Assembly (NCBI GenBank): GCA_946499835.1
Contig: CAMMTJ010000005.1
Location: 930-64,929, forward strand
DNA length: 64,000 nt
Direction: 5' to 3'
Source: an uncultured Bacillota bacterium
GTDB taxonomy: Bacteria > Bacillota > Clostridia > Christensenellales > UBA1242
The position numbers and the translations under genes were made by a program. Below the pieces are notes generated by a model. It had not been told where the DNA came from. It did no database searches and saw only the letters and a list, made by a program, of their open reading frames with translations. Every line of letters begins with the position of its first letter. The first letter of the stretch is position 1. Positions 15,146-32,063 of this stretch are shown in pieces.

Positions 15146-17407
15146 ATGACAAAAGAAATTGACAAAAATGACATTGCATGGAAAGGCTTCAAAGGTGAAG
15201 ACTGGAAAAGCCAAATCAATGTTTCAGACTTCATTTTGAAAAACTATACCGAATATCGTGGAGACGACTCTTTCCTTGCTGGCATCAGTGCCAAGACAAA
15301 GAAGGTTTGGTCAAAATGTGAAAAACTTTTGGCTCTTGAAAGAAAAAAAGGACTTTTGGATGTTGAACTTAAAATCATGTCCGGCATCAACACTTTCAAG
15401 CCAGGATATATTGACAAGAGAAATGAGGTGGTTGTTGGACTTCAAACAGACAAGCCTCTCAAAAGAATTGTCAACCCATATGGTGGAATCAGAATGGCAA
15501 TGCAGGCTCTTGCTGCTTATGGCAAACACATGGATCCTGCTATGGAGAAAATTTTCACATCAGGCATGAGAAAAACACACAACGACGGTGTTTTCGATGC
15601 TTACACACCTGACATTCGTGCCGCAAGAAGTGCAGGACTTTTGACAGGACTTCCAGATGCTTATGGCAGAGGAAGAATTATTGGTGATTATAGACGTGTT
15701 GCTCTTTACGGAATTGATCGTCTTATTGAAGAGAAGAAAAAAGATCTTCTTCTCCCTCAAATGCTTGACGTTTCAACAGAAGAGGGCATCAGACATCGTG
15801 AAGAACTCTCTGAACAAATCAGAGCACTTGAACAAATCAAGGCTATGGCAAAAGGTTATGGCTATGACATTTCAAAGCCTGCAACAAATGCTCGTGAGGC
15901 TTTCCAATGGACATATTTTGCATACCTTGCAGCAGTAAAAGAAAATAATGGTGCAGCAATGAGTCTTGGAAGAGTTTCAACCTTCCTTGATATCTATGTT
16001 GAAAGAGATATGAAAAAAGGCTTGCTTGATGAGGTGGGCGCACAAGAACTTGTTGACCAATTCACAATCAAACTTCGTCTTGTTCGTCACCTTCGCACAC
16101 CTGAGTATGATGAAATCTTCGCAGGTGACCCAACTTGGGTAACTGAAAGTATAGCCGGTATGGCAGACGACAAGAAGAGTCTTGTCACAAAAAACTCTTT
16201 CAGATTCTTGCACTGCCTCATCAATCTCGACAGTTCACCAGAGCCTAACCTCACAGTGCTTTGGTCAACTCGTTTGCCAGAAAACTTCAAAAAATATTGC
16301 GCAAAGATCTCAATTCTCACCGATTCAATTCAGTATGAAAGCGATGATGTTATGCGTCCAATTTATGGCAATGACTATGCGATTGCGTGTTGCGTATCTG
16401 CAATGAAAGTTGGAAAACAAATGCAATTTTTTGGTGCAAGATGCAACTTGGCGAAATCTCTTCTTTACTCAATCAACGAGGGCAGAGATGAAAAGAGTGG
16501 CAAACTTGTTGTTGCTGGCGTTGCAAAGATGAGCGGAAAAGTGCTTGATTATGAAAAAGTGAAAAAGGCATATTTTGCCACACTTGACAAAGTTGCAAAA
16601 ACTTATGTTGATGCAATGAACATCATTCACTATATGCACGACAAATATGCATATGAAGCAGGACAAATGGCACTTCATGACACAAATGTTGAAAGACTTA
16701 TGGCATTTGGTATGGCTGGTCTTTCAGTTGCGGCAGATTCACTTTCTGCAATCAAGTATGCAAAGGTTGAACCTATCCGCAATGAGCAAGGCATCGCTGT
16801 TGACTTCAAAGTTGAAGGCGATTTCCCTAAATATGGAAATGATGATGATCGTGTTGACGAAATCGCAGTTGAGATTGTCAAACACTTTATTGCAGCACTT
16901 AAAAAGCACAAACTTTATCGTGGTGCAATCCATACACTTTCTGCCCTTACAATCACATCAAATGTTATGTATGGCAAAAAGACAGGAAACACACCTGATG
17001 GAAGAAAGGCAGGATGTGCATTTGCCCCTGGTGCAAACCCAATGCACGGAAGAGACTGCTCTGGCGCACTTGCATCTCTCAACTCAGTAGCAAAAATTCC
17101 TTATGCTGACTGCTGTCAAGACGGAATTTCAAACACATTCTCAATCATTCCAAACGCGCTTGGTCATGATATGAAATCAAGAGTGAAAAACCTTGTTTCA
17201 ATCCTTGACGGCTATTTCATTCAAGGCGCACAACATATCAATGTCAATGTGCTTGACAGAGAAAAACTTGTTGATGCTATGAATCACCCAGAAAAATATC
17301 CAACACTCACAATCAGAGTTTCAGGATATGCAGTAAACTTTGTCAAACTTTCTCGTGCACACCAAGAGGAAGTTATCGCCAGAACTTTCCATGAGAGGAT
17401 AAAATAA
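15146..17407 (+). CDS. pflB: Pyruvate formate-lyase
   Basis: [24 protein letters not shown] catalytic Cys pair, TIRVSGYAV glycyl-radical motif. Confidence 0.98.
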
Positions 17408-18750
17408 TGGAGCAATTTCTTCAAAAGATAGATTCTTGGCAAAGAAATGTGTTTATATTTGACTTTGACGGGACTTTGCTTAACAGTGAGCCCTGTCATT
17501 TTCTTTCACACAAAAAAGTTATTGAAGGGCTTTTTCCTGAAAGAACATTCACAAGAGAAGATTTTCAACACTTTGTTGGGAAAAGAGATGTGGATATATA
17601 TCAAGAGATTTCCACATGGGGAAAAATTGATAAAGAAAAAGCAATAAAAGACAAACAAAAATTTTCATTGCAGATGTTGAAGAAAAAAGATGTGAAGATT
17701 TTTGATTATTTTCATTCAATAACAAAACTTTTCCCAGACGCTCACTATATCATTGCATCAAATCAAGATGAAAATACCATCAGGCAGGTCTTGAAAAGCA
17801 AAAAGATAGAAGATAAGTTTGAAAAAATATATTCTATGGACACTTTGAAAATAAAAAAGGACCAATTTTTGAAAGAGGTGAAGAGTTGCACATCTTTTTC
17901 ACCAAAAGAGATTGTTCTGTTTGAAGATTCCATTTCAATTTTGGCTCTTGGAAAAAGTCTTGGCATGAAAAGCGTTGGAATAAAAAATGACATAAACAAA
18001 GACCTTAAATTTGACTGTGACCTAGTGATTGATTGCACAAAAAAAGATGTGCTGGGCAAAGTCAACAGTGTTGAGTCAATGGGATTGGTTGATGGGCCAG
18101 GCATAAGATATGTTGTCTTTTTGCAAGGTTGCATGCTTCGTTGCAAATATTGTCACAATCCAGAGACTTGGGAAATTGATGGAAAAAGTGAACTTATCAG
18201 TGCAAAAAAACTTGTGGACAAGGCTGAAAAATTCAAAGCTTATTATGGTGAAGAGGGTGGCATGACTTTTTCAGGAGGAGAACCGCTTTTGCAACCACAA
18301 TTCTTGCTGGAATGTTTGAAAGAGTGCAAAGCAAGAGGCATAAACACAGCGCTTGATACGGCAGGCGTGGGCTTTGGTGACTATGATGAAATTTTGGACT
18401 ATGTCGATCTTGTTATACTGGACATCAAGGCGGTTGACAAAGATGAATATAAAGATCTCACTGGACAGCCAATGGATAGGTTTGAAACCTTTTTGGCTCA
18501 GGCGATCAAAAAGAAAAAACGTTTTTGGCTCAGGCAAGTCATTGTCCCAGGAATAAATGATGACGAAAAGCACGTCAAAGCACTCAAAAAGTTTGCGGAT
18601 GGTGTGCCAAATGTGGAAAAGGTGGAACTTTTGCCATACAAGACAATAGGCGTCATGAAATATAAAGATCTTGGCATAAAATATCGTCTTGAAGGCGTGC
18701 CTGACATGGATGAAGAAAAATGTGACAAACTTGCATTGCTCTTAAAATAA
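17407..18750 (+). CDS. pflA: HAD phosphatase domain fused to PFL-activating enzyme
   Basis: N-half has FDFDGTL and FEDS; C-half has DGPGIRYVVFLQGCMLRCKYCHNPETW and SGGEP. Confidence 0.9.
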   Translation: MEQFLQKIDSWQRNVFIFDFDGTLLNSEPCHFLSHKKVIEGLFPERTFTREDFQHFVGKRDVDIYQEISTWGKIDKEKAIKDKQKFSLQMLKKKDVKIFDYFHSITKLFPDAHYIIASNQDENTIRQVLKSKKIEDKFEKIYSMDTLKIKKDQFLKEVKSCTSFSPKEIVLFEDSISILALGKSLGMKSVGIKNDINKDLKFDCDLVIDCTKKDVLGKVNSVESMGLVDGPGIRYVVFLQGCMLRCKYCHNPETWEIDGKSELISAKKLVDKAEKFKAYYGEEGGMTFSGGEPLLQPQFLLECLKECKARGINTALDTAGVGFGDYDEILDYVDLVILDIKAVDKDEYKDLTGQPMDRFETFLAQAIKKKKRFWLRQVIVPGINDDEKHVKALKKFADGVPNVEKVELLPYKTIGVMKYKDLGIKYRLEGVPDMDEEKCDKLALLLK

Positions 18751-19802: not shown

Positions 19803-20020
19803 GAAGTTTATCACTTCGCTTTGTTTTTTTTGGTAGCAGCAACTGGGACCTTACCCCTATGCTCACTTCATTCGCATTGGGGACCCCGAATTTCACCCCT
19901 GTGCTCATTTTATTCGCACTGGGGACCAGTGGCACTGGTTCGCTCCCTTAAAAGTGCATAGTGCAATAAAAAAAGGAAGTTTATCACTTCGCTTTATTTT
20001 CTTGGTAGCAGCAACTGGGA
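19803..20020. repeat. Duplicated tRNA-Met 3' end plus terminator, enclosing two REP-like hairpins
   Basis: gaagtttatcacttcgcttt...tggtagcagcaactggga at 19803-19848 and 19976-20020; 33-bp repeats at 19853-19885 and 19895-19927. Confidence 0.8.
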
Positions 20021-20079
20021 TCGAACCAGTGACCTCATGAGTATGAATCATGCGCTCTAGCCAGCTGAGCTATGCTGCC
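20003..20079 (-). tRNA. tRNA-Met(CAT), probably elongator
   Basis: GGCAGCA/TGCTGCT acceptor stem, anticodon arm CATGA-TTCATAC-TCATG, encoded CCA. Confidence 0.94.
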
Positions 20080-20261
20080 ATATATCAAGTGGACGCTTTT
20101 TATTATATCTATTTGTGAGAGCAAAGTCAATGATTTTTTGCAAGAAAAAAGTGCTTTTCTTTGTTTTGTCTATTATTAAAAGGCAAAAAAGGCAACAATT
20201 GACACAAAGTTGCTTGAAAAAAATCAAGCGCTATGATAAAATATATCAAAGAGAGGGTGCT

Positions 20262-21335
20262 ATGGCAGGATATGAAAAAAACACACAAACCTTAAACGAG
20301 GTGAATGAAAGAAAAAGGAAAAGGGCTTCAAATCAAAGAGAAGCAAATATCAAATATTTGGTTGAACAAGTTGGTTTTTCAGAAGAACTTGCAAAAAAGA
20401 TGGTGGACAAGGAAAATCTTGCTCCGCTGAGCAATGAAGAACTTGCATCTCGTATGGAGTTTTTCAGAGGACTTGGCATGACTAATTCTGAAATTGTGAA
20501 AATGTCAAAAAAATTTTCCAAGATTTTTTCTTACACAGTGCCACATATGAAGGAAGTGTGTGAGAACTTAAAAAATGGTCTTGGCGCAGATGAAAAACAA
20601 ATTTTTGATACCGTCACATCTTTTCCAAGAATTTTTAGTTATAGCCTAAAAAATATCCAAGAAAAAAAGAAGTTTGTCAAGGAAAACTTGTGTCCAGCAG
20701 GCGTTTCAAGCAAAGAATTGATGGCCAAAAATTTGCAAATTCTTTGCAGGAGCGAGAAAGATCTTTTGGATAGAAAAGCATTTTTGAAAGAAACTTTTGG
20801 ACTCAATGAAAATGAATGCAGAGACGTTATTTTCAATAATACTTACATTTTCGGCATGGCAAAAGAAAGTTTGTCAAAAAAGGCAGATGCCATTGAACAG
20901 GTTTTTGGAAGCAAGAAATATGTCCTCAATGACAATTTCATTTTGACAGCATCGCCTGAAAAATTGAAGTTCAACTATATGATTTTGTCACAATATAGTG
21001 CTGACCCATCATCCTTTATGAAGAGAAGATTTTATTTGCACAGGCCAAGTGTGTTATATGCAAGAGCAGAAGGACTGAAAAGTGCGAACAGGCAAGTGAG
21101 AACATCTTTGATTTTACAAACAAACAAATATTTTGAAGAAAAAACAGGGTTAAACACGCAAAGCCTGATGAAAGATTTCCCATTTGACAACGATGTTGCA
21201 CAAGAAATTATTTTGAATTATCATGAAAAATTCCCAAAAGTTCCAATAACTTTGGATGAAGAAGAAATCAAAGTTATTGTGGCGGGTGGACATAGTGCAA
21301 GAGCGAAAAAAGAAGTTGAAATGGGGGAGGTGTGA
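20262..21335 (+). CDS. mTERF-like helical repeat protein, large subunit of locus 1
   Basis: ~35-aa repeats such as LGMTNSEIVKMSKKFSKIFSY and LGADEKQIFDTVTSFPRIFSYS; C-terminus aligns with the 30776-31969 protein; start chosen from the RBS. Confidence 0.7.
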   Translation: MAGYEKNTQTLNEVNERKRKRASNQREANIKYLVEQVGFSEELAKKMVDKENLAPLSNEELASRMEFFRGLGMTNSEIVKMSKKFSKIFSYTVPHMKEVCENLKNGLGADEKQIFDTVTSFPRIFSYSLKNIQEKKKFVKENLCPAGVSSKELMAKNLQILCRSEKDLLDRKAFLKETFGLNENECRDVIFNNTYIFGMAKESLSKKADAIEQVFGSKKYVLNDNFILTASPEKLKFNYMILSQYSADPSSFMKRRFYLHRPSVLYARAEGLKSANRQVRTSLILQTNKYFEEKTGLNTQSLMKDFPFDNDVAQEIILNYHEKFPKVPITLDEEEIKVIVAGGHSARAKKEVEMGEV

Positions 21336-21622
21336 TTATGCCAAAGGTATTTGAAGAGTATGGTCTTAGCAAATATGATTTTGAAACCATAAAAAGTATT
21401 TTTCCATCCGTTTCTGTGCTTGATGAAGAGAGAATGAGAAAGAATATCGAACTTGTTGTTCATTTTGGCTATCCAGTTGAGGACATTTCAATTTTCATGG
21501 TGACAAACCCATCTTTTCTCAGCTATGATCCACAAAGACTTAAAAAGAAACTGGAAATACTTACTGATGGAAAAACTTTCAATCTTGAAAACTTGCTCAA
21601 ATGCGATCCATTTATCATTTAA
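21332..21622 (+). CDS. Small mTERF-like partner protein, locus 1
   Basis: Overlaps the upstream stop; FGYPVED...NPSFL...LKCDPFII; paralog of 30481-30774. Confidence 0.7.
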   Translation: MIMPKVFEEYGLSKYDFETIKSIFPSVSVLDEERMRKNIELVVHFGYPVEDISIFMVTNPSFLSYDPQRLKKKLEILTDGKTFNLENLLKCDPFII

Positions 21623-21634
21623 GGAGAAAAAATT

Positions 21635-22057
21635 ATGTTGTATGATCAAATAAAGAAAGCCAACGTTGAGGCTATGAAAAACAAAGATGCTGTTGCAAGA
21701 AGCATTTACAGTGTCGTGCTCAACAAACTTATGCTTGAAGTAATCAAAAAAAGAGAAAAAGGGCAAGAAATTGATGACGCTGACGTGTCAAACATCTTGC
21801 AAAAGACAATAAAAGAACTCAGCGAAGAAAAAGAAAACTATGCAAAAGTTGGCAACAATGAGGAAGTGGAAAAAATCACAACTCAAATTGCCACATTAGA
21901 AAAGTTTTTGCCAAAAATGCTTTCAAAGCAGGAAATTGCCGATATCATAAATTCACTTGATGACAAGAGCATTCCATCAGTCATGAAACACTTTAAGGCA
22001 AATTACAACGGCAAGTGCGATATGCGTCTTGTTCAAGAAGTTTTGAGGAATTTGTGA
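21635..22057 (+). CDS. GatB/YqeY domain protein
   Basis: LYDQIKKANVEAMKNKD, LEKFLPKMLS, MKHFKANYNGKCD. Confidence 0.88.
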   Translation: MLYDQIKKANVEAMKNKDAVARSIYSVVLNKLMLEVIKKREKGQEIDDADVSNILQKTIKELSEEKENYAKVGNNEEVEKITTQIATLEKFLPKMLSKQEIADIINSLDDKSIPSVMKHFKANYNGKCDMRLVQEVLRNL

Positions 22058-22761
22058 TGAAGGTCTTTGCAATAAGCGACCTTCATCTTTCTCTGCACAA
22101 TCCAAAGCCTATGGATATCTTTGGGCCTGCATGGGAAGGGTATATTGACAAGATTTTCGCTGACTGGAAAGAGAAGGTGACAGAGGAAGACCTTGTGCTT
22201 CTTGCTGGCGACTTTTCTTGGGCGATGAATCTTGAAAACACAAAGAGCGACTTTGAACTTTTAAGCCAACTTCCTGGCAAAAAAGTCATCATAAGAGGCA
22301 ATCATGACTATTGGTGGAAAAGCATCTCGGCGGTGCGAAAGTTTGTTCCAGAAGGGTTTTATGTTATTCAAAATGACGCCATGAAGTTTGGCAATATCGT
22401 CATTTGTGGGACAAGAGGTTGGAGCGTGCCAGAGAAAAACAGTGAGATATCACCAGAAGATCAAAAAATTTTGGCACGTGAGGTTATAAGGCTTGAAATG
22501 AGCCTCAACAGTGCAAAGAAATTGTGCACTGATGAGAGGGACAAGATCGTTTGCATGATGCACTATCCGCCAGTCAACTTTAAGAGAGAAGACAGTCAAT
22601 TTTCATCTCTTATCAAAGATTATGGCGTAAGCGCTGTTGTCTTTGGGCATCTTCACGGCTACAAAAATATTGCGTTGAAGTTTTTCAAGGATGATTTGCC
22701 TTACTATTTGACCTCTTGTGACCTCACCGAAAACAAACTGGTTTTGATTGAAGAGGTTTAA
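22057..22761 (+). CDS. Calcineurin-like metallophosphoesterase
   Basis: SDLH, AGD, GNHD, HYPP, GHLH. Confidence 0.92.
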   Translation: MKVFAISDLHLSLHNPKPMDIFGPAWEGYIDKIFADWKEKVTEEDLVLLAGDFSWAMNLENTKSDFELLSQLPGKKVIIRGNHDYWWKSISAVRKFVPEGFYVIQNDAMKFGNIVICGTRGWSVPEKNSEISPEDQKILAREVIRLEMSLNSAKKLCTDERDKIVCMMHYPPVNFKREDSQFSSLIKDYGVSAVVFGHLHGYKNIALKFFKDDLPYYLTSCDLTENKLVLIEEV

Positions 22762-27008: not shown

Positions 27009-28472
27009 TTAATAAACTCCTTCCACACGATAAACATAAATGTCTGCATCTTGATAATACACACTGCTCATCGTCACAGAGCCAGAAGATCTTGACAAGA
27101 TAATTGTGTAAAAGACAGCAAAACGATTTTGAGCCTCTGTGGCTCTCAAATGGACAAGATAGCAATTCAGTCCAGTTGCGTCAGTGGACAGAATGACACC
27201 ATCGGTGATTGCGCCATGTAAAGGCATTTCTGTGTAGGCGTAATAGTTTTTTACGCAAGCATAAACACGAAGTTTTTTGTATTTTGCATAATCAATGACA
27301 AGCGTTTTTGATCCAGTCATTCCATCTGGGCAGTTGTTGTTGTGATCTGGATCATCTTTGTCATAGAGCAGTTCAACAGTTTCGCCACCGCCACCACTTC
27401 CGCCACCGCCAAGAGAGTCGATTTCATTCTCACAAGCGGTGACACGTTGGGCAATTGATGTCAAACTGGCACGCGTGCTTTCAAGAGTGGTTGAAAAAGA
27501 AGAAACATCATCTTCCATATTGCCGACAGTCGTCTCGCAGGTGTTGACCTTGTTTTCACAAGTCGTCATTCTTTGAGAGACTGAGGTGAGTGAGGCTCTG
27601 GTGCTTTCCAGCGTAGTGTCCAAAGTGTCAACTTCACTTGACAGACTGCTCAAATCTCCGTCCAGTGCAGAAACTTCGCTTTCAAGAGAGTCTATATCTG
27701 TTTGCATGGCAGATATGCTTGATGAGTGAGAAGAAGTTGTTGACTGCAAAGAGTCAATCTCACCTTCGGCTGTGGTCACCCTTTGAGCAACAGATGTGAG
27801 AGAAGATCTTGTGCTTTCAAGCGTGCTGTCAAGATCGTTCACTTGCTCGGAGATTGAAGATATCGAGCCTTGGGCGCTTTCGACTTGATCAGATAACCCT
27901 GAAAGAGATGTTTGCAAAGCCGTTATTGACGTGTCATGCCCTTGCAGAGATGTTTGAATTTCGTCAATCTCACCTTCGGCTGTTGTAACTCGTTGGGCTA
28001 TCGCAGTCAATGATGATCTTGTGTTTTCAAGCGTTGTGGAAAGTGTGCCAATGCTTGTGGTGTTGGCAGAGATCGCTTCTTCTGCATCTTCTAGGTCACT
28101 TTCAAGAGTGGATATAGAAGAAGAAAGGGTGGATAGTGATTGAGAAAGGGTTGAGAGAGAAGAAGATAGATCAGTTATTTGGCTTGTATGATTGCTAGTA
28201 GTATTAGTAAGAGTGTCAAGATCCTCCTGCATACTGCTGTCCGCTAGTTCAAGATTTGTCAGCCTGCTTTTGATATCCTTGATTGTCTGCTGAGAAGAGA
28301 GCAGTTCATCCAAAAAAGAGAGCACTGCCGATTTGATAGCCTCAGTCGTTGTGCCTTGTGAAATAAGAGCGGTAAGTTCTTCTTTAAGCGCTGGCAAACT
28401 CTTTTTGACAAGAGCCCAAAGTTCTTTTTCAAGTTGTTCAACGCTGTTTGATAACATTTGAAATTTGTCCAT
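27009..28472 (-). CDS. Long coiled-coil fibre-like protein with Gly linker and C-terminal beta-rich head
   Basis: Heptad S/T-rich stalk with TLE(S/N)TR.SLT...QR repeated four times; GGGGSGGGG linker. Confidence 0.7.
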   Translation of the reverse strand: MDKFQMLSNSVEQLEKELWALVKKSLPALKEELTALISQGTTTEAIKSAVLSFLDELLSSQQTIKDIKSRLTNLELADSSMQEDLDTLTNTTSNHTSQITDLSSSLSTLSQSLSTLSSSISTLESDLEDAEEAISANTTSIGTLSTTLENTRSSLTAIAQRVTTAEGEIDEIQTSLQGHDTSITALQTSLSGLSDQVESAQGSISSISEQVNDLDSTLESTRSSLTSVAQRVTTAEGEIDSLQSTTSSHSSSISAMQTDIDSLESEVSALDGDLSSLSSEVDTLDTTLESTRASLTSVSQRMTTCENKVNTCETTVGNMEDDVSSFSTTLESTRASLTSIAQRVTACENEIDSLGGGGSGGGGETVELLYDKDDPDHNNNCPDGMTGSKTLVIDYAKYKKLRVYACVKNYYAYTEMPLHGAITDGVILSTDATGLNCYLVHLRATEAQNRFAVFYTIILSRSSGSVTMSSVYYQDADIYVYRVEGVY

Positions 28473-28534
28473 AAAAAAACTCCTTTGCAAGCATTTTACA
28501 AAGGAGATTTGTCTTCTTCAAGAAAGACTGCCAA

Positions 28535-29143
28535 TTATTTCTTTTTGGAGCGTTTTTTCCGGATGAAAATCACTGACAGAATAATAGTGACAAGGGCGAC
28601 AATTATGGTTATTGATGCGATTAGTGCACCGCTTATGCCATAAGGTGCAATATCTTGCGTTCTCATCATGCCATAGAAGAGGGATCCATCTTCCAAAACT
28701 ATTGCAAGAGAGGTAAACTCATTTTGGTCATCAAAACCGCCGTAAATGGTTATGCCTTGCCCAAGTTTTGCGATGTGCTGAGTTGGATTTCCATTGATGT
28801 CATAAATGATCGCGCCATCAAGAGTGACCGATCCGTTGAAAACAGGATAAACATCTTGCCCATTCTCATTTGTTGTGACGTAATATTTGTAAACGTATCC
28901 CTCTATTGTCTGATCTTCAACATCTGCTCTGACAAGAATGAAATCGCCATTTTCTTCAATTGCTTGGAATATTGTTCCATGTTCAAAAGTATAAGCCTGT
29001 CCAGAGGCGTCTGCAAGCACTGTTTCAAAAGAAGGCGAGGCATACAAATTGACAAAAGTTGCCACAACTGATAGGCTCTGTCCACCTGAAACCGTTGAGG
29101 CAAAACTGGTAACTAAAAGAATGCACGCAAGCAAAGTTTTCAT
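28535..29143 (-). CDS. Exported protein with SH3b-like domains and C-terminal TM anchor
   Basis: Signal peptide; VNLYASPS...GYVYKYYV; terminal TM helix followed by basic RKKRSKKK. Confidence 0.6.
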   Translation of the reverse strand: MKTLLACILLVTSFASTVSGGQSLSVVATFVNLYASPSFETVLADASGQAYTFEHGTIFQAIEENGDFILVRADVEDQTIEGYVYKYYVTTNENGQDVYPVFNGSVTLDGAIIYDINGNPTQHIAKLGQGITIYGGFDDQNEFTSLAIVLEDGSLFYGMMRTQDIAPYGISGALIASITIIVALVTIILSVIFIRKKRSKKK

Positions 29144-29199: not shown

Positions 29200-29316
29200 T
29201 GTGGATAACTCTCCATTTTATGTGGATAACTGCCCATAAAAATGTGGATAACTGTGCCTATTATGTGGATAACTCGACAAAAAAATGTGGATAACTTGAC
29301 CCAAAATTGTGGAAAA
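29200..29316. promoter_or_regulatory. DnaA-box array (five perfect, one with a single mismatch)
   Basis: TGTGGATAA at 29200, 29221, 29243, 29264 and 29286; TGTGGAAAA at 29308. Confidence 0.88.
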
Positions 29317-30480: not shown

Positions 30481-30774
30481 TCAAATTGCAAAAGGATTGT
30501 TTTTTAGATATTCTTCAATATCAATCTTTTGCAGGATGAGTTTGTCAAGTTCATTCATCAACACATTTTCGTCCATTGTCATAACATTAGGGTTTTGACA
30601 GAAAAGGTCTGGCAAATCTTCTTTTGGAAAGCCATAACAACTTAAAACTCGCATCACACCTTTAACTTCTTTCAGCGTGGTAACATCAAGGGTTGGAGCA
30701 ATATTTTTCATATCTTCAATCTCATTTTTAGTAAATTTCATTTGCAGTAAAAAATTTTCCAAATCTTTCTGCAT
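30481..30774 (-). CDS. Small mTERF-like partner protein, locus 2
   Basis: AGGAG RBS; YGFPKED...NPNVM...LKNNPFAI; paralog of 21332-21622. Confidence 0.75.
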   Translation of the reverse strand: MQKDLENFLLQMKFTKNEIEDMKNIAPTLDVTTLKEVKGVMRVLSCYGFPKEDLPDLFCQNPNVMTMDENVLMNELDKLILQKIDIEEYLKNNPFAI

Positions 30775-30775
30775 A

Positions 30776-31969
30776 TCATTCTCCTCTTTCTGCACTTTTT
30801 TGCAAATCTTCCAATTTAACTTCAAGTTTTTTATCGTCATTTATTTCTGTGAGTTTGTCATATTCGCTATTCACAAATTCCACAACTTCTTTTGTGATTG
30901 GAAACTTTTCCATAAGTTTAATGCTCTCAACTCCATATTTTTTTTGAAAGTTTTTTTCACCAAGAAATACATCGTCAGGCCTCATTTTATCAGTTTGGTT
31001 CATTTGAGAATATCTTGCCCAAAATTTTCTTTCGCTTGTCATGCTCCAGAATTTTTTATCAAGGAATTTTTTGTTGCCAAAAGCAACATATAAAAGCATA
31101 TATTTGAAAATAAAACCTTTGGAAGGTGTTGCCAACATTGAAGGATTTTTAATTATATCATCTTTGCTTAACTTAATCTTATCAAAAATTTCCTTCTTGT
31201 TTTTAAGCCCTTCATTAGCATAACATAAAAGAGAAGGTGAAATTTTAAGCATTTTGTTGAACTCATCTTGTGTCAAGCCAAAAGTCTCTTTATAAAATTT
31301 AGTCTTTTGTAACACACTTTCATCATTCAAATTTAGAATGGAAGGCAAAGATTTGAATATTTTGCTGAATTCATCTTGTGATAAGTCAAAAGTCTCTTTA
31401 TAAAACTTAGCCTTTTCCAAAACATTTTCACTATTGAGACCCAAAAGGGTAGGAGAGGATTTAATCATTTTGGAAATTTGGTCTTGTGTTAAGTTGAAAG
31501 TGTCTTTATAAAAGTTAACTTTTTCCAAAACATTTTTCTTTTTCAAAAATAAAAGAGAAGGTTGAGATTTTATCATTTTGTTTGCTTCTTCTCGTGTTAA
31601 GTTAAAAGTTCCTTGATAAAAGTCAATTTTTTCTTTCACGCTTTTATTTTTCAAACATAAAAGAGTAGGATAAGTTTTAATCGTTTTGTTAAATTCGCTT
31701 TGTGTTAGGCCAAAAGTTTCTTGATAAAACTTAGCCTTTTCCAAAACACTTTTATTACTATAACTTAAAATGGCAGGCAAGGTCTTAACCATTTTGATAA
31801 AGTCTCTTTGTGTTAAGTTAAATGTTGGTTTATAAAAGTCAGTTTTTTTCGAAATTTTTTCTTTTTTGAGATATAAAAGCGATGGAAGAGATGCTTCTTT
31901 CCTTTTGATATCATCATCTGTCCACTCAAAATCTTGTTTCAAAATCTCAGTAATACTTGTTATCCCCAT
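30776..31969 (-). CDS. mTERF-like tandem repeat protein, large subunit of locus 2
   Basis: Six well-conserved 36-aa repeats; mTERF-like C-terminal pattern SERKFWARY...EKNFQKKY; GGAGG RBS. Confidence 0.8.
   Translation of the reverse strand: MGITSITEILKQDFEWTDDDIKRKEASLPSLLYLKKEKISKKTDFYKPTFNLTQRDFIKMVKTLPAILSYSNKSVLEKAKFYQETFGLTQSEFNKTIKTYPTLLCLKNKSVKEKIDFYQGTFNLTREEANKMIKSQPSLLFLKKKNVLEKVNFYKDTFNLTQDQISKMIKSSPTLLGLNSENVLEKAKFYKETFDLSQDEFSKIFKSLPSILNLNDESVLQKTKFYKETFGLTQDEFNKMLKISPSLLCYANEGLKNKKEIFDKIKLSKDDIIKNPSMLATPSKGFIFKYMLLYVAFGNKKFLDKKFWSMTSERKFWARYSQMNQTDKMRPDDVFLGEKNFQKKYGVESIKLMEKFPITKEVVEFVNSEYDKLTEINDDKKLEVKLEDLQKSAERGE
31196..31843 (-). repeat. Six 108-bp coding tandem repeats
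   Basis: Consensus xxFYKxTFxLTQxEFxKMIKxxPxLLxLxxxSVLEK. Confidence 0.9.
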
Positions 31970-32063
31970 TTCAACCTCCATTCGAATTTTATCATAATAT
32001 GACAAAATTGTCAATATGCAAGTTATCGGTGATATATATCAAAATTGAATAATATATTACCAT

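Follow-up and report, generated by a model that had tools for sequence, protein, structure and literature searches.

A two-gene locus of an uncultured Clostridia bacterium encodes an mTERF-like protein and an acidic mini-mTERF predicted to lie in its groove

Why would a bacterium encode, directly behind the gene of an mTERF-like protein, a second and much shorter protein built from the same repeat, and what could the short protein do there? The question is raised by a 64,000-nucleotide stretch of contig CAMMTJ010000005.1 (assembly GCA_946499835.1; below, the window) from an uncultured bacterium of the Clostridia, whose genome (99% complete) comprises 995,667 bases in 16 contigs. The list of open reading frames (ORFs) of the window contains two loci of like build, locus 1 on the plus strand and locus 2 on the minus strand; we call the large and small proteins of locus 1 L1 and S1 and those of locus 2 L2 and S2. 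We propose, as a reading to which we give an even chance, that the large protein is a nucleic acid binder of the pTERF kind and that the acidic mini-mTERF occupies its groove, closing the binding face until it is displaced or degraded.

The pTERFs are prokaryotic mTERF-like proteins with 3 to 11 tandem three-helix units, described from metagenome-assembled genomes (MAGs), mostly of Bacillota (PMC11417379). According to the main text of that paper, pTERF1, which comes from a ruminant-gut Clostridia MAG, binds ACTNNNAGTC, a specific double-stranded DNA (dsDNA), with a dissociation constant of 1.87 nM, pTERF2 binds a different dsDNA motif, and both bound DNA as single purified proteins; neither a small partner gene nor a conserved C-terminal module is mentioned there. 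Among the literature matches listed, this 2024 paper was the only one on bacteria, the others dealing with plant PtERF genes or unrelated subjects, and in the text of a 2026 plant paper mTERF is said to be absent from prokaryotes (PMC12977773). The bacterial mTERF (pTERF) kind has thus been known since 2024, and the dedicated mini-mTERF partner of the large protein is what is new here.

RESULTS

The large protein is an mTERF solenoid with a conserved C-terminal module

Both large proteins lie well above the gathering cut-off of the Pfam mTERF family (PF02536; 23.1 bits), L1 with 52.8 bits and L2 with 129.9 bits (E values in Table 1). L1 consists of a long N-terminal helix, five contiguous degenerate mTERF motifs, and a conserved C-terminal module (residues 218 to 357). 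Its AlphaFold2 model, with a predicted local distance difference test score (pLDDT) of 89.9 and a predicted template modeling score of 0.78, is all-helical and shows recurring long, medium, and short helices. In a Foldseek search, the best match was the MTERF1-DNA complex 3mvb (E 3.2e-7; template modeling [TM] score, 0.51/0.55; ~300 aligned columns), and MTERF3 and MTERF4 ranked after the MTERF1-DNA complexes. L1 is modeled, then, as a solenoid of three-helix motifs that can be superimposed on solved mTERF structures. A profile of 31 large proteins (alignment A1) matched human MTERF1 with an E value of 7.8e-24, MTERF3 with 9.2e-20, and MTERF4 with ~1e-7.

The last 140 residues form a module that is conserved across all large proteins (alignment A3). 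In the profile alignment, this module opens as the last mterf motif of MTERF1 does, column for column, with IIENPRVLDSSISTLKSRIK aligned to the family's 'IlknpkiLtaPankLklrY'. Against PDB sequences the module gave chance-level matches alone (E 0.57 and above), while a search with A3 of 1.84 billion representative proteins returned 407 matches at E <=1e-3 and 194 at E <=1e-10. The ESM Atlas holds Bacillota mTERF clusters of ~94 to 99 and of 300 to 510 amino acids (aa), which serve as leads only.

Compared by description rather than by sequence, the pTERFs are the closest described kind for the large proteins. As the main text presents them (PMC11417379), they share with the large proteins an origin in uncultured gut Clostridia or Bacillota, tandem three-helix mTERF motifs in variable number, and an MTERF1-like predicted fold. 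The likeness is strongest for L2, which has homogeneous tandem 36-aa units, whereas the repeats of L1 are degenerate and those of the pTERFs near-identical. The human MTERF1-DNA complex (PDB 3MVA, 3MVB, 3N6S) is the best match by both profile and fold, but MTERF1 is a eukaryotic, nucleus-encoded protein that acts in an organelle and sits on DNA as a monomer. From this homology and from the fold, we infer that the large protein binds nucleic acid.

The small protein is an acidic mini-mTERF

S1 also lies above the Pfam cut-off (26.4 bits), while S2 remains below it (19.3 bits; E 6e-4). The AlphaFold2 model of S1 (pLDDT 92.9) has eight helices, that is, ~2.5 mTERF motifs, and its top 18 Foldseek matches consist entirely of mTERF proteins (TM by query, 0.53 to 0.80), with E values that are weak because the protein is short. 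A search with the small-protein profile yielded 56 clusters, none of them named, of which 53 are 94 to 103 aa long.

The small protein ends with 'NPFxI', the counterpart of the 'NPxIL' that opens the C-terminal module of the large proteins, and it resembles the final repeats of a large protein truncated before this module. Matches of the small-family hidden Markov model (HMM) within large proteins all fall in the repeat region, and a fused large and small form was not seen, the HMM finding no small-family match behind the C-terminal module in the large proteins scanned. The 13 small proteins that we aligned (alignment A2), which are 27 to 56% identical to S1, share 13 invariant columns. All 13 are acidic (isoelectric point [pI], 4.05 to 5.31), while 29 of the 31 large proteins have a pI above 8.3, the exceptions being those of genome G157 (6.8) and one G017 copy (6.6).

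Large and small genes are closely spaced in both loci

The two ORFs of locus 1 and their neighbors (Table 1) are where the preliminary description had placed them: ARAGORN finds the divergent tRNA-Met, and Pfam identifies yqeY and a metallophosphoesterase gene downstream. L1 starts at ATG 20262, preceded by AGAGAGGG. For S1, the first methionine is invariant in the alignment of the 13 small proteins, and we thus place its start at ATG 21338. Consequently, the stop codon of L1 (TGA 21333-21335) and the start of S1 are 2 nt apart and do not overlap. A GTGA at which the two genes had been described as overlapping does exist, as GTG 21332 runs over the L1 stop, but it is not the conserved start. 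Locus 2 is similar, with a TGA, 1 nt, and an ATG at 30774 preceded by AGAGGAG. The layouts of both loci suggest that the large and small genes are translationally coupled. Past the L1 start, the only terminator-like site on the plus strand is weak and lies at 22622, inside the phosphoesterase gene.

Table 1. Features of the two mTERF loci and of the surroundings of locus 1 (window coordinates)
Feature	Position	Strand	Basis and remarks
tRNA-Met (CAT)	20003..20079	-	ARAGORN; divergent from the operon, one edge of the variable slot
Promoter-like site, putative (TTGAAA, 17 nt, TAAAAT, with TG)	20214..20242	+	Consensus scan alone; 20 nt before ATG 20262
Large gene L1, 357 aa, pI 9.1	20262..21335 (ORF 20115/20262..21335)	+	ORF; Pfam mTERF E 3.8e-14
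Shine-Dalgarno-like GGGGGAGG	21323..21330	+	Sequence reading; inside the L1 3' end, 7 nt before the S1 ATG
Small gene S1, 94 aa, pI 5.1	21338..21622 (ORF 21332..21622)	+	ORF; Pfam mTERF E 4.2e-6
yqeY	21635..22057	+	Pfam YqeY PF09424 E 7.1e-18; 12 nt behind the S1 gene
Metallophosphoesterase gene	22057..22761	+	Pfam Metallophos E 1.5e-16; closes the apparent operon
Small gene S2, 97 aa, pI 4.6	30481..30774	-	ATG 1 nt behind the L2 stop codon
Large gene L2, 412 aa, pI 9.3	30776..32014	-	Homogeneous 36-aa repeats; Pfam mTERF E 1.3e-37

The two loci are old paralogous pairs

BLASTP aligned L1 with L2 (E 5e-16; 23% identity over 288 aa) and S1 with S2 end to end (E 1e-9; 27% identity over 84 aa), which supports the view that the two pairs are old paralogs with significant similarity. 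These alignments contain every motif pair that had been quoted for the large and for the small proteins. The contrast that had been drawn between homogeneous repeats in locus 2 and degenerate ones in locus 1 is borne out at the DNA level as well: a 108-bp unit is present in 5.7 copies (71% matches) at 31222-31837 inside L2, whereas no DNA-level repeat array was found within 20262-21335. L1 and L2 are not sisters in the C-terminal-module tree, where L2 belongs to a starred clade of eight pairs and L1 sits on a long unresolved branch.

Elsewhere in this genome, a third, weak Pfam mTERF match (E 0.0028) was seen inside a 957-codon open frame (contig C3:63454-63654, locus L005).

Small genes lie directly behind large genes, and many large genes have no small gene

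Among the 154 genomes of the genus, this one included, the L1 protein query found relatives in 27, and the small-protein profile matched in 15 genus genomes at E <=1e-6. Every one of the 17 intact small genes for which upstream sequence is available immediately follows a large gene. In the first 15 of these loci, the small gene is within a few bases of the end of the large gene (G000, this genome, with two; G157, G011, G034, G143, G082, G094, G083, G090, G099, G119, G113, G064, and G334, the last from another genus of the same family). A search of the genome contigs with S2 gave seven loci, each with a large gene ending just upstream; five of them (81 to 84% identity) had probably been counted already, and the two new ones (64% and 54%) bring the total to 17. 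Two cases were left out, namely, G174, where the small gene opens one contig and the large gene is at the edge of a different one, and G077, which has a 58-aa small-gene fragment and no large gene.

The converse does not hold. The C-terminal-module tree has 32 rows, of which 14 are paired, 17 are solo, and 1 is at a contig edge. Eleven solo rows stand on one side of a split that separates them from the 14 pairs and 6 other solos (support 93/92, unstarred). The partner label changes 4 times on this tree compared to 10.5 times for shuffled labels, which, since kin rows share labels, shows clustering only. The pair had been called an obligate two-component unit on the basis of the two loci; this stands for the small gene, of which no intact copy was found apart from a large gene, but not for the large gene, more than half of whose copies in the tree are partnerless, 11 of them in one branch.

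The large genes of the partnerless branch directly precede a conserved gene of ~245 aa that occurs in at least 12 genus genomes, starts with 'MDLFNSWLV..PIAHRGLHD', and, to judge from its sequence, looks like a glycerophosphodiester phosphodiesterase (GDPD). This GDPD-like gene follows a large gene in G025, G017, G152, G155, G084, G072, G149, G098, G158, G170, G101, and G065 (loci L031, L016, L047, L027, L028, L030, L033, L036-L039, and L070). Other partnerless large genes were found beside a helicase gene (G017 and G065), in G092, and in G126. In both G152 and G126, two large genes stand in tandem.

Beyond the genus, the distribution is narrow. Within an order sample of 400 other genomes, the C-terminal module was present in 4 of the 20 genomes of the same family and was not found in the 380 genomes of 41 other families; nor was it found in any of the 400 genomes of a phylum sample.

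S1 is predicted to lie along the inner face of the L1 solenoid

To our knowledge, no small mTERF partner in the groove of MTERF1 is known. We predicted the complex of the cognate pair L1 and S1 using alignments A1 and A2, together with three control runs. The complex scored 0.89 (0.89, 0.89, and 0.84 in the individual runs), while the best of the controls reached 0.00; the cognate prediction, which the preliminary description had proposed as a check, was thereby passed. The score mark is reached by 58 of 80 solved complexes and by 2 of 110 mismatched pairs, counts that are only a rough guide here because our own alignments were used. Contacts agreed by at least 84% between runs, and the pLDDT of the partner was at least 88. 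Overall, L1 and S1 probably form a real two-protein complex.

The predicted interface involves 40 of the 357 residues of L1 (72-84, 112-121, 159, 195-203, 226-231, 256-264, 287-289, 299-303, and 338-344) and 40 of the 94 residues of S1, with a net charge of +4 on L1 and -4 on S1. As the contacts touch five successive motifs and the C-terminal module, the small protein must, in this model, lie along the inner face (the groove) of the L1 solenoid and not on one end. The capping subunit that had been considered earlier does not fit the same predicted contacts, which are spread over residues 72 to 344 of L1 rather than gathered at one end. An effector/inhibitor pairing, the other possibility raised at that time, would fit the predicted groove position.

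The residues R162, F243, and Y288 of MTERF1, which we take to be the base-flipping ones, are those given as mutated in the titles of MTERF1 structures in the PDB. On the profile alignment, and relative to the proline of the motif (P), R162 is at P-2, R202, F243, and R350 are at P+1, and R251 and Y288 are at P+9; this register was counted by hand and calibrated with the mutated residues of 3mvb, 5crk, and 5co0. A figure legend on MTERF1 names R162, R202, R251, R350, and R387 as base-reading residues and describes the central helices of motifs 5 to 8 as aligned with the DNA backbone (PMC4705650). At this DNA-reading register, the model has L1 contacting S1 through K84 and S120 (P-2), Q159, Y195, and F226 (P+1), and S203 (P+9). 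Six of the 15 register positions are in contact, compared to 16 of the 148 other residues of the region 72-234 (Fisher one-sided p 0.007, a value that is only an indication, as the register was picked after the data had been seen). None of the five reading arginines of MTERF1 is present at the aligned positions of L1. The proline itself, which caps the central helix, is kept in only one of the five L1 motifs (P122), though the family alignment has proline-consensus columns.

The locus 1 pair is accessory cargo in a variable slot

A syntenic ortholog of locus 1 is present in G157, with the same order of large gene, small gene, yqeY, and phosphoesterase gene. Between G157 and the window, YqeY is 74% and the phosphoesterase 73% identical, the small protein 55%, and the large protein 25%; judged from these identities, the pair evolves much faster than its neighbor genes. 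In other pairs, the identities of the small and large proteins are 81/58, 38/39, 35/36, and 48/28%, the small protein being as conserved or more so.

The gene yqeY is a core gene (145 of the 154 genus genomes). In the 29 loci with the closest yqeY (L079-L107), 3 of which have under 300 bp of upstream DNA, no mTERF gene was found upstream of it. In 11 of the 29, tRNA-Met is only 140 to 203 bp from yqeY, and the slot is therefore empty; 4 have unrelated short ORFs of 130 to 227 aa on the opposite strand. At further loci, yqeY is preceded by genes that we named by reading their sequences as alanine racemase-like, RecF-like, or other genes. ORFs of 330 to 404 aa before yqeY were considered as diverged L1 homologs and rejected, none matching the large-family HMM better than E 0.056. 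The tRNA-Met/yqeY slot (20080-21634 in the window) holds an mTERF pair in this genome and in G157 alone. Since the slot is empty or otherwise filled in relatives, the locus 1 pair is accessory cargo in a variable slot beside a tRNA gene.

Most sequencing runs that contain the stretch are labeled chicken gut metagenome. The metatranscriptome run X16 contains contigs identical to the window at 20442-20815 (L1), 21153-21348 (L1/S1 junction), 21416-21660 (S1 into yqeY), and 21675-22112 (yqeY into the phosphoesterase gene), of which, by the 31-letter rule, the last alone bridges a junction. Run X17 contains one 1,603-nt contig of a related strain, which matches 20773-20981 and, beyond an intervening stretch that has diverged without a change in length, 21129-22354, and which extends from the 3' half of L1 over S1 and yqeY to the start of the phosphoesterase gene. 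In this run, the depth is above 1000 for tRNA-Met and ~8 for the operon. Neither run covers 20094-20384, a region that begins ahead of L1 and takes in its 5' end; such a gap proves nothing. These contigs are consistent with transcription of L1, S1, yqeY, and the phosphoesterase gene together, which they leave unproven because they carry no strand and RNA libraries can contain DNA.

The diverged 147-nt stretch of the X17 contig (20981-21129, of the same length in both strains) corresponds to L1 residues ~240 to 290 and holds predicted S1 contacts (256-264 and 287-289). Furthermore, the protein P0002, which is 95% identical to L1, differs from it chiefly at residues 298 to 323, where the more distant P0004 (71%) equals L1. 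Taken together, the diverged stretch and this pattern suggest mosaic recombination.

Other features of the window

Upstream of locus 1, a plus-strand ORF at 17407-18750 (447 aa) reads like a pyruvate formate-lyase activating enzyme with its CxxxCxxC motif; its translation is in addition extended at the N terminus by ~210 aa, which include a DFDGTL motif of the sort typical for HAD-type hydrolases. Beside locus 2, at 27009-29143 on the minus strand, are genes for a Ser/Thr-rich coiled-coil protein of 493 aa and for a membrane-anchored protein of 202 aa, and look-alikes of these two genes, recognized by their N termini, stand directly behind the mTERF pair of G082 (locus L020, 2595-3783).

The gene-free stretch between the mTERF loci contains five perfect DnaA-box sequences (TTATCCACA) on the minus strand at 29200-29294, spaced by 21 to 22 bp. 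By chance, 0.49 would be expected in the whole window, and none of 100 shuffles reached five. The cumulative GC skew does not turn at this cluster, which may therefore be a DnaA-titrating or regulatory cluster rather than an origin. Pfam also identifies Spo0A in the window.

DISCUSSION

Our proposal for the pair is as follows. The large protein, an mTERF solenoid that is basic and all-helical, would bind nucleic acid with its inner face, as MTERF1, pTERF1, and pTERF2 do. The small protein, an acidic mini-mTERF of 2.5 motifs, would be made from the same transcript by coupled translation, its ATG following the stop codon of the large gene by 2 nt behind an internal ribosome-binding site. In a tight 1:1 complex of the two, the solenoid would enclose the small protein, and the latter would cover the motif positions that read DNA in MTERF1. 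Because it is predicted to cover these positions, the small protein is most likely a groove-occupying partner that keeps the binding face closed; it would be the cognate occupant of the groove until displaced or degraded, and the pair a regulator with its anti-factor. The inhibitory role as such we put forward tentatively, a little short of an even chance.

Two kinds of known systems are worth comparing. MTERF4 is an mTERF protein near whose C-terminal end a second protein, NSUN4, binds. MTERF4-NSUN4 (PDB 4FP9, 4FZV), an obligate complex, resembles the pair described here in joining an mTERF protein to another protein, and both L1 and S1 have it in their lists of fold matches. NSUN4, however, is an rRNA methyltransferase, while the partner of L1 is itself a mini-mTERF and is predicted to occupy the groove. 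Anti-sigma factors and DNA-mimic proteins resemble our proposal in mode, not in family. As in those systems, a small acidic protein would sit on the nucleic acid face of a basic protein whose gene is its neighbor, but we found no relation to any of them in sequence or in fold, and the mini-mTERF is built from the repeat of its target.

Several of our observations weigh against the proposal. Binding of nucleic acid by L1 is assumed, and the motif proline is kept in one of its five motifs only. The L1 ortholog in the syntenic locus of G157 is not basic (pI 6.8). The L1-S1 complex is a predicted model, judged from its contact list, and the prediction covers the cognate pair L1 and S1 alone; moreover, the conserved positions of S1 are not enriched in the interface: of the 17 that are invariant or almost so, it contains 7, compared to 40 of the 94 residues overall. 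Since 17 of the 32 large genes in the tree are not followed by a small gene, the large protein can occur without the plug. In the comparison with G157, the small protein is also the better conserved of the two (55% versus 25%), which would be unusual for an inhibitor in an arms race. Finally, contigs from RNA libraries can derive from DNA, and a contig spanning two genes is no proof of a single transcript.

The leading alternative is that the small protein never leaves. It would then be a permanent structural subunit that fills or stiffens the solenoid or adds a recognition surface, and the heterodimer would be the active nucleic acid binder or a scaffold. The very large predicted interface (40 of 94 small-protein residues), the strict linkage with coupled translation, the fixed length of the small protein (53 of 56 clusters), and its better conservation would all fit such a subunit. 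Against it, the small protein is acidic in 13 of 13 cases, and in the model, S1 covers the DNA-reading positions of MTERF1 and leaves no obvious canonical binding face. The main text on pTERF1 and pTERF2 also describes them as binding DNA as single purified proteins (PMC11417379). We regard a permanent subunit as rather unlikely, if far from negligible.

A special case of inhibition is that the pair is a toxin-antitoxin-like or defense cassette, in which the solenoid would be a harmful roadblock on DNA or RNA and the acidic protein its antidote. The patchy occurrence (27 of 154 genus genomes with the L1 query, none of the 380 genomes of other families in the order, and none of the 400 of the phylum sample), the slot beside a tRNA gene that is empty in 11 of 29 loci and filled by unrelated short ORFs in 4, the rapid divergence (25% for the large and 55% for the small protein against 74% for YqeY and 73% for the phosphoesterase), and the presence of two pairs in a genome of ~1 Mb are in line with this idea. 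The databases are not: PADLOC gave no match for L1 or S2, E 0.014 for S1, and, as its best, E 1.7e-4 over a 45-residue stretch of L2, which is not convincing, PHROGs gave nothing below E 0.0019 for the proteins of the pair, and NCBIfam gave none, so that membership in a known toxin-antitoxin or defense family was not found in these three collections. No integrase or other mobile-element gene was seen beside the pair, which is apparently cotranscribed with the core gene yqeY. Large genes without a partner are frequent, and the putative antidote is encoded downstream of the putative toxin and is more conserved than it. Such a cassette strikes us as improbable.

That there is no partnership at all, the small ORF being a leftover fragment of a duplicated repeat array, is highly improbable, for although the small protein resembles the repeats of the large one, inside which the small-family HMM finds its matches, and G077 has its 58-aa fragment alone, the 13 invariant columns in sequences only 27 to 56% identical to S1, the fixed length (94 to 103 aa in 53 of 56 clusters), the start codon and ribosome-binding site kept in both paralogs, the confident fold (pLDDT 92.9), which fits a real protein, and the presence of the stretch in RNA libraries speak against it.

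Returning to the groove occupant, we can take the idea one step further, though we consider this extension doubtful: the mini-mTERF could have arisen when 2.5 motifs of a solenoid became an acidic protein in their own right, one that now plugs the groove of its parent by mimicking nucleic acid, the pair being an accessory, conflict-type cassette for variable slots like that between tRNA-Met and yqeY. If true, such a plug would gate a fast-evolving and possibly programmable DNA- or RNA-binding solenoid, and the pair would represent a new regulator/anti-regulator or toxin/antidote module in which one fold is used twice.

The paper on pTERFs, in its main text, treats bacterial mTERF proteins as single DNA-binding proteins of biotechnological interest (PMC11417379). 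If many bacterial members use a groove-filling partner, in vitro binding studies and attempts at reprogramming should take this partner into account. In that case, the pair would also be a simple model for the gating of the binding face of a repeat protein. Its fast divergence and variable slot raise the question of its role in the reduced genomes of gut Clostridia.

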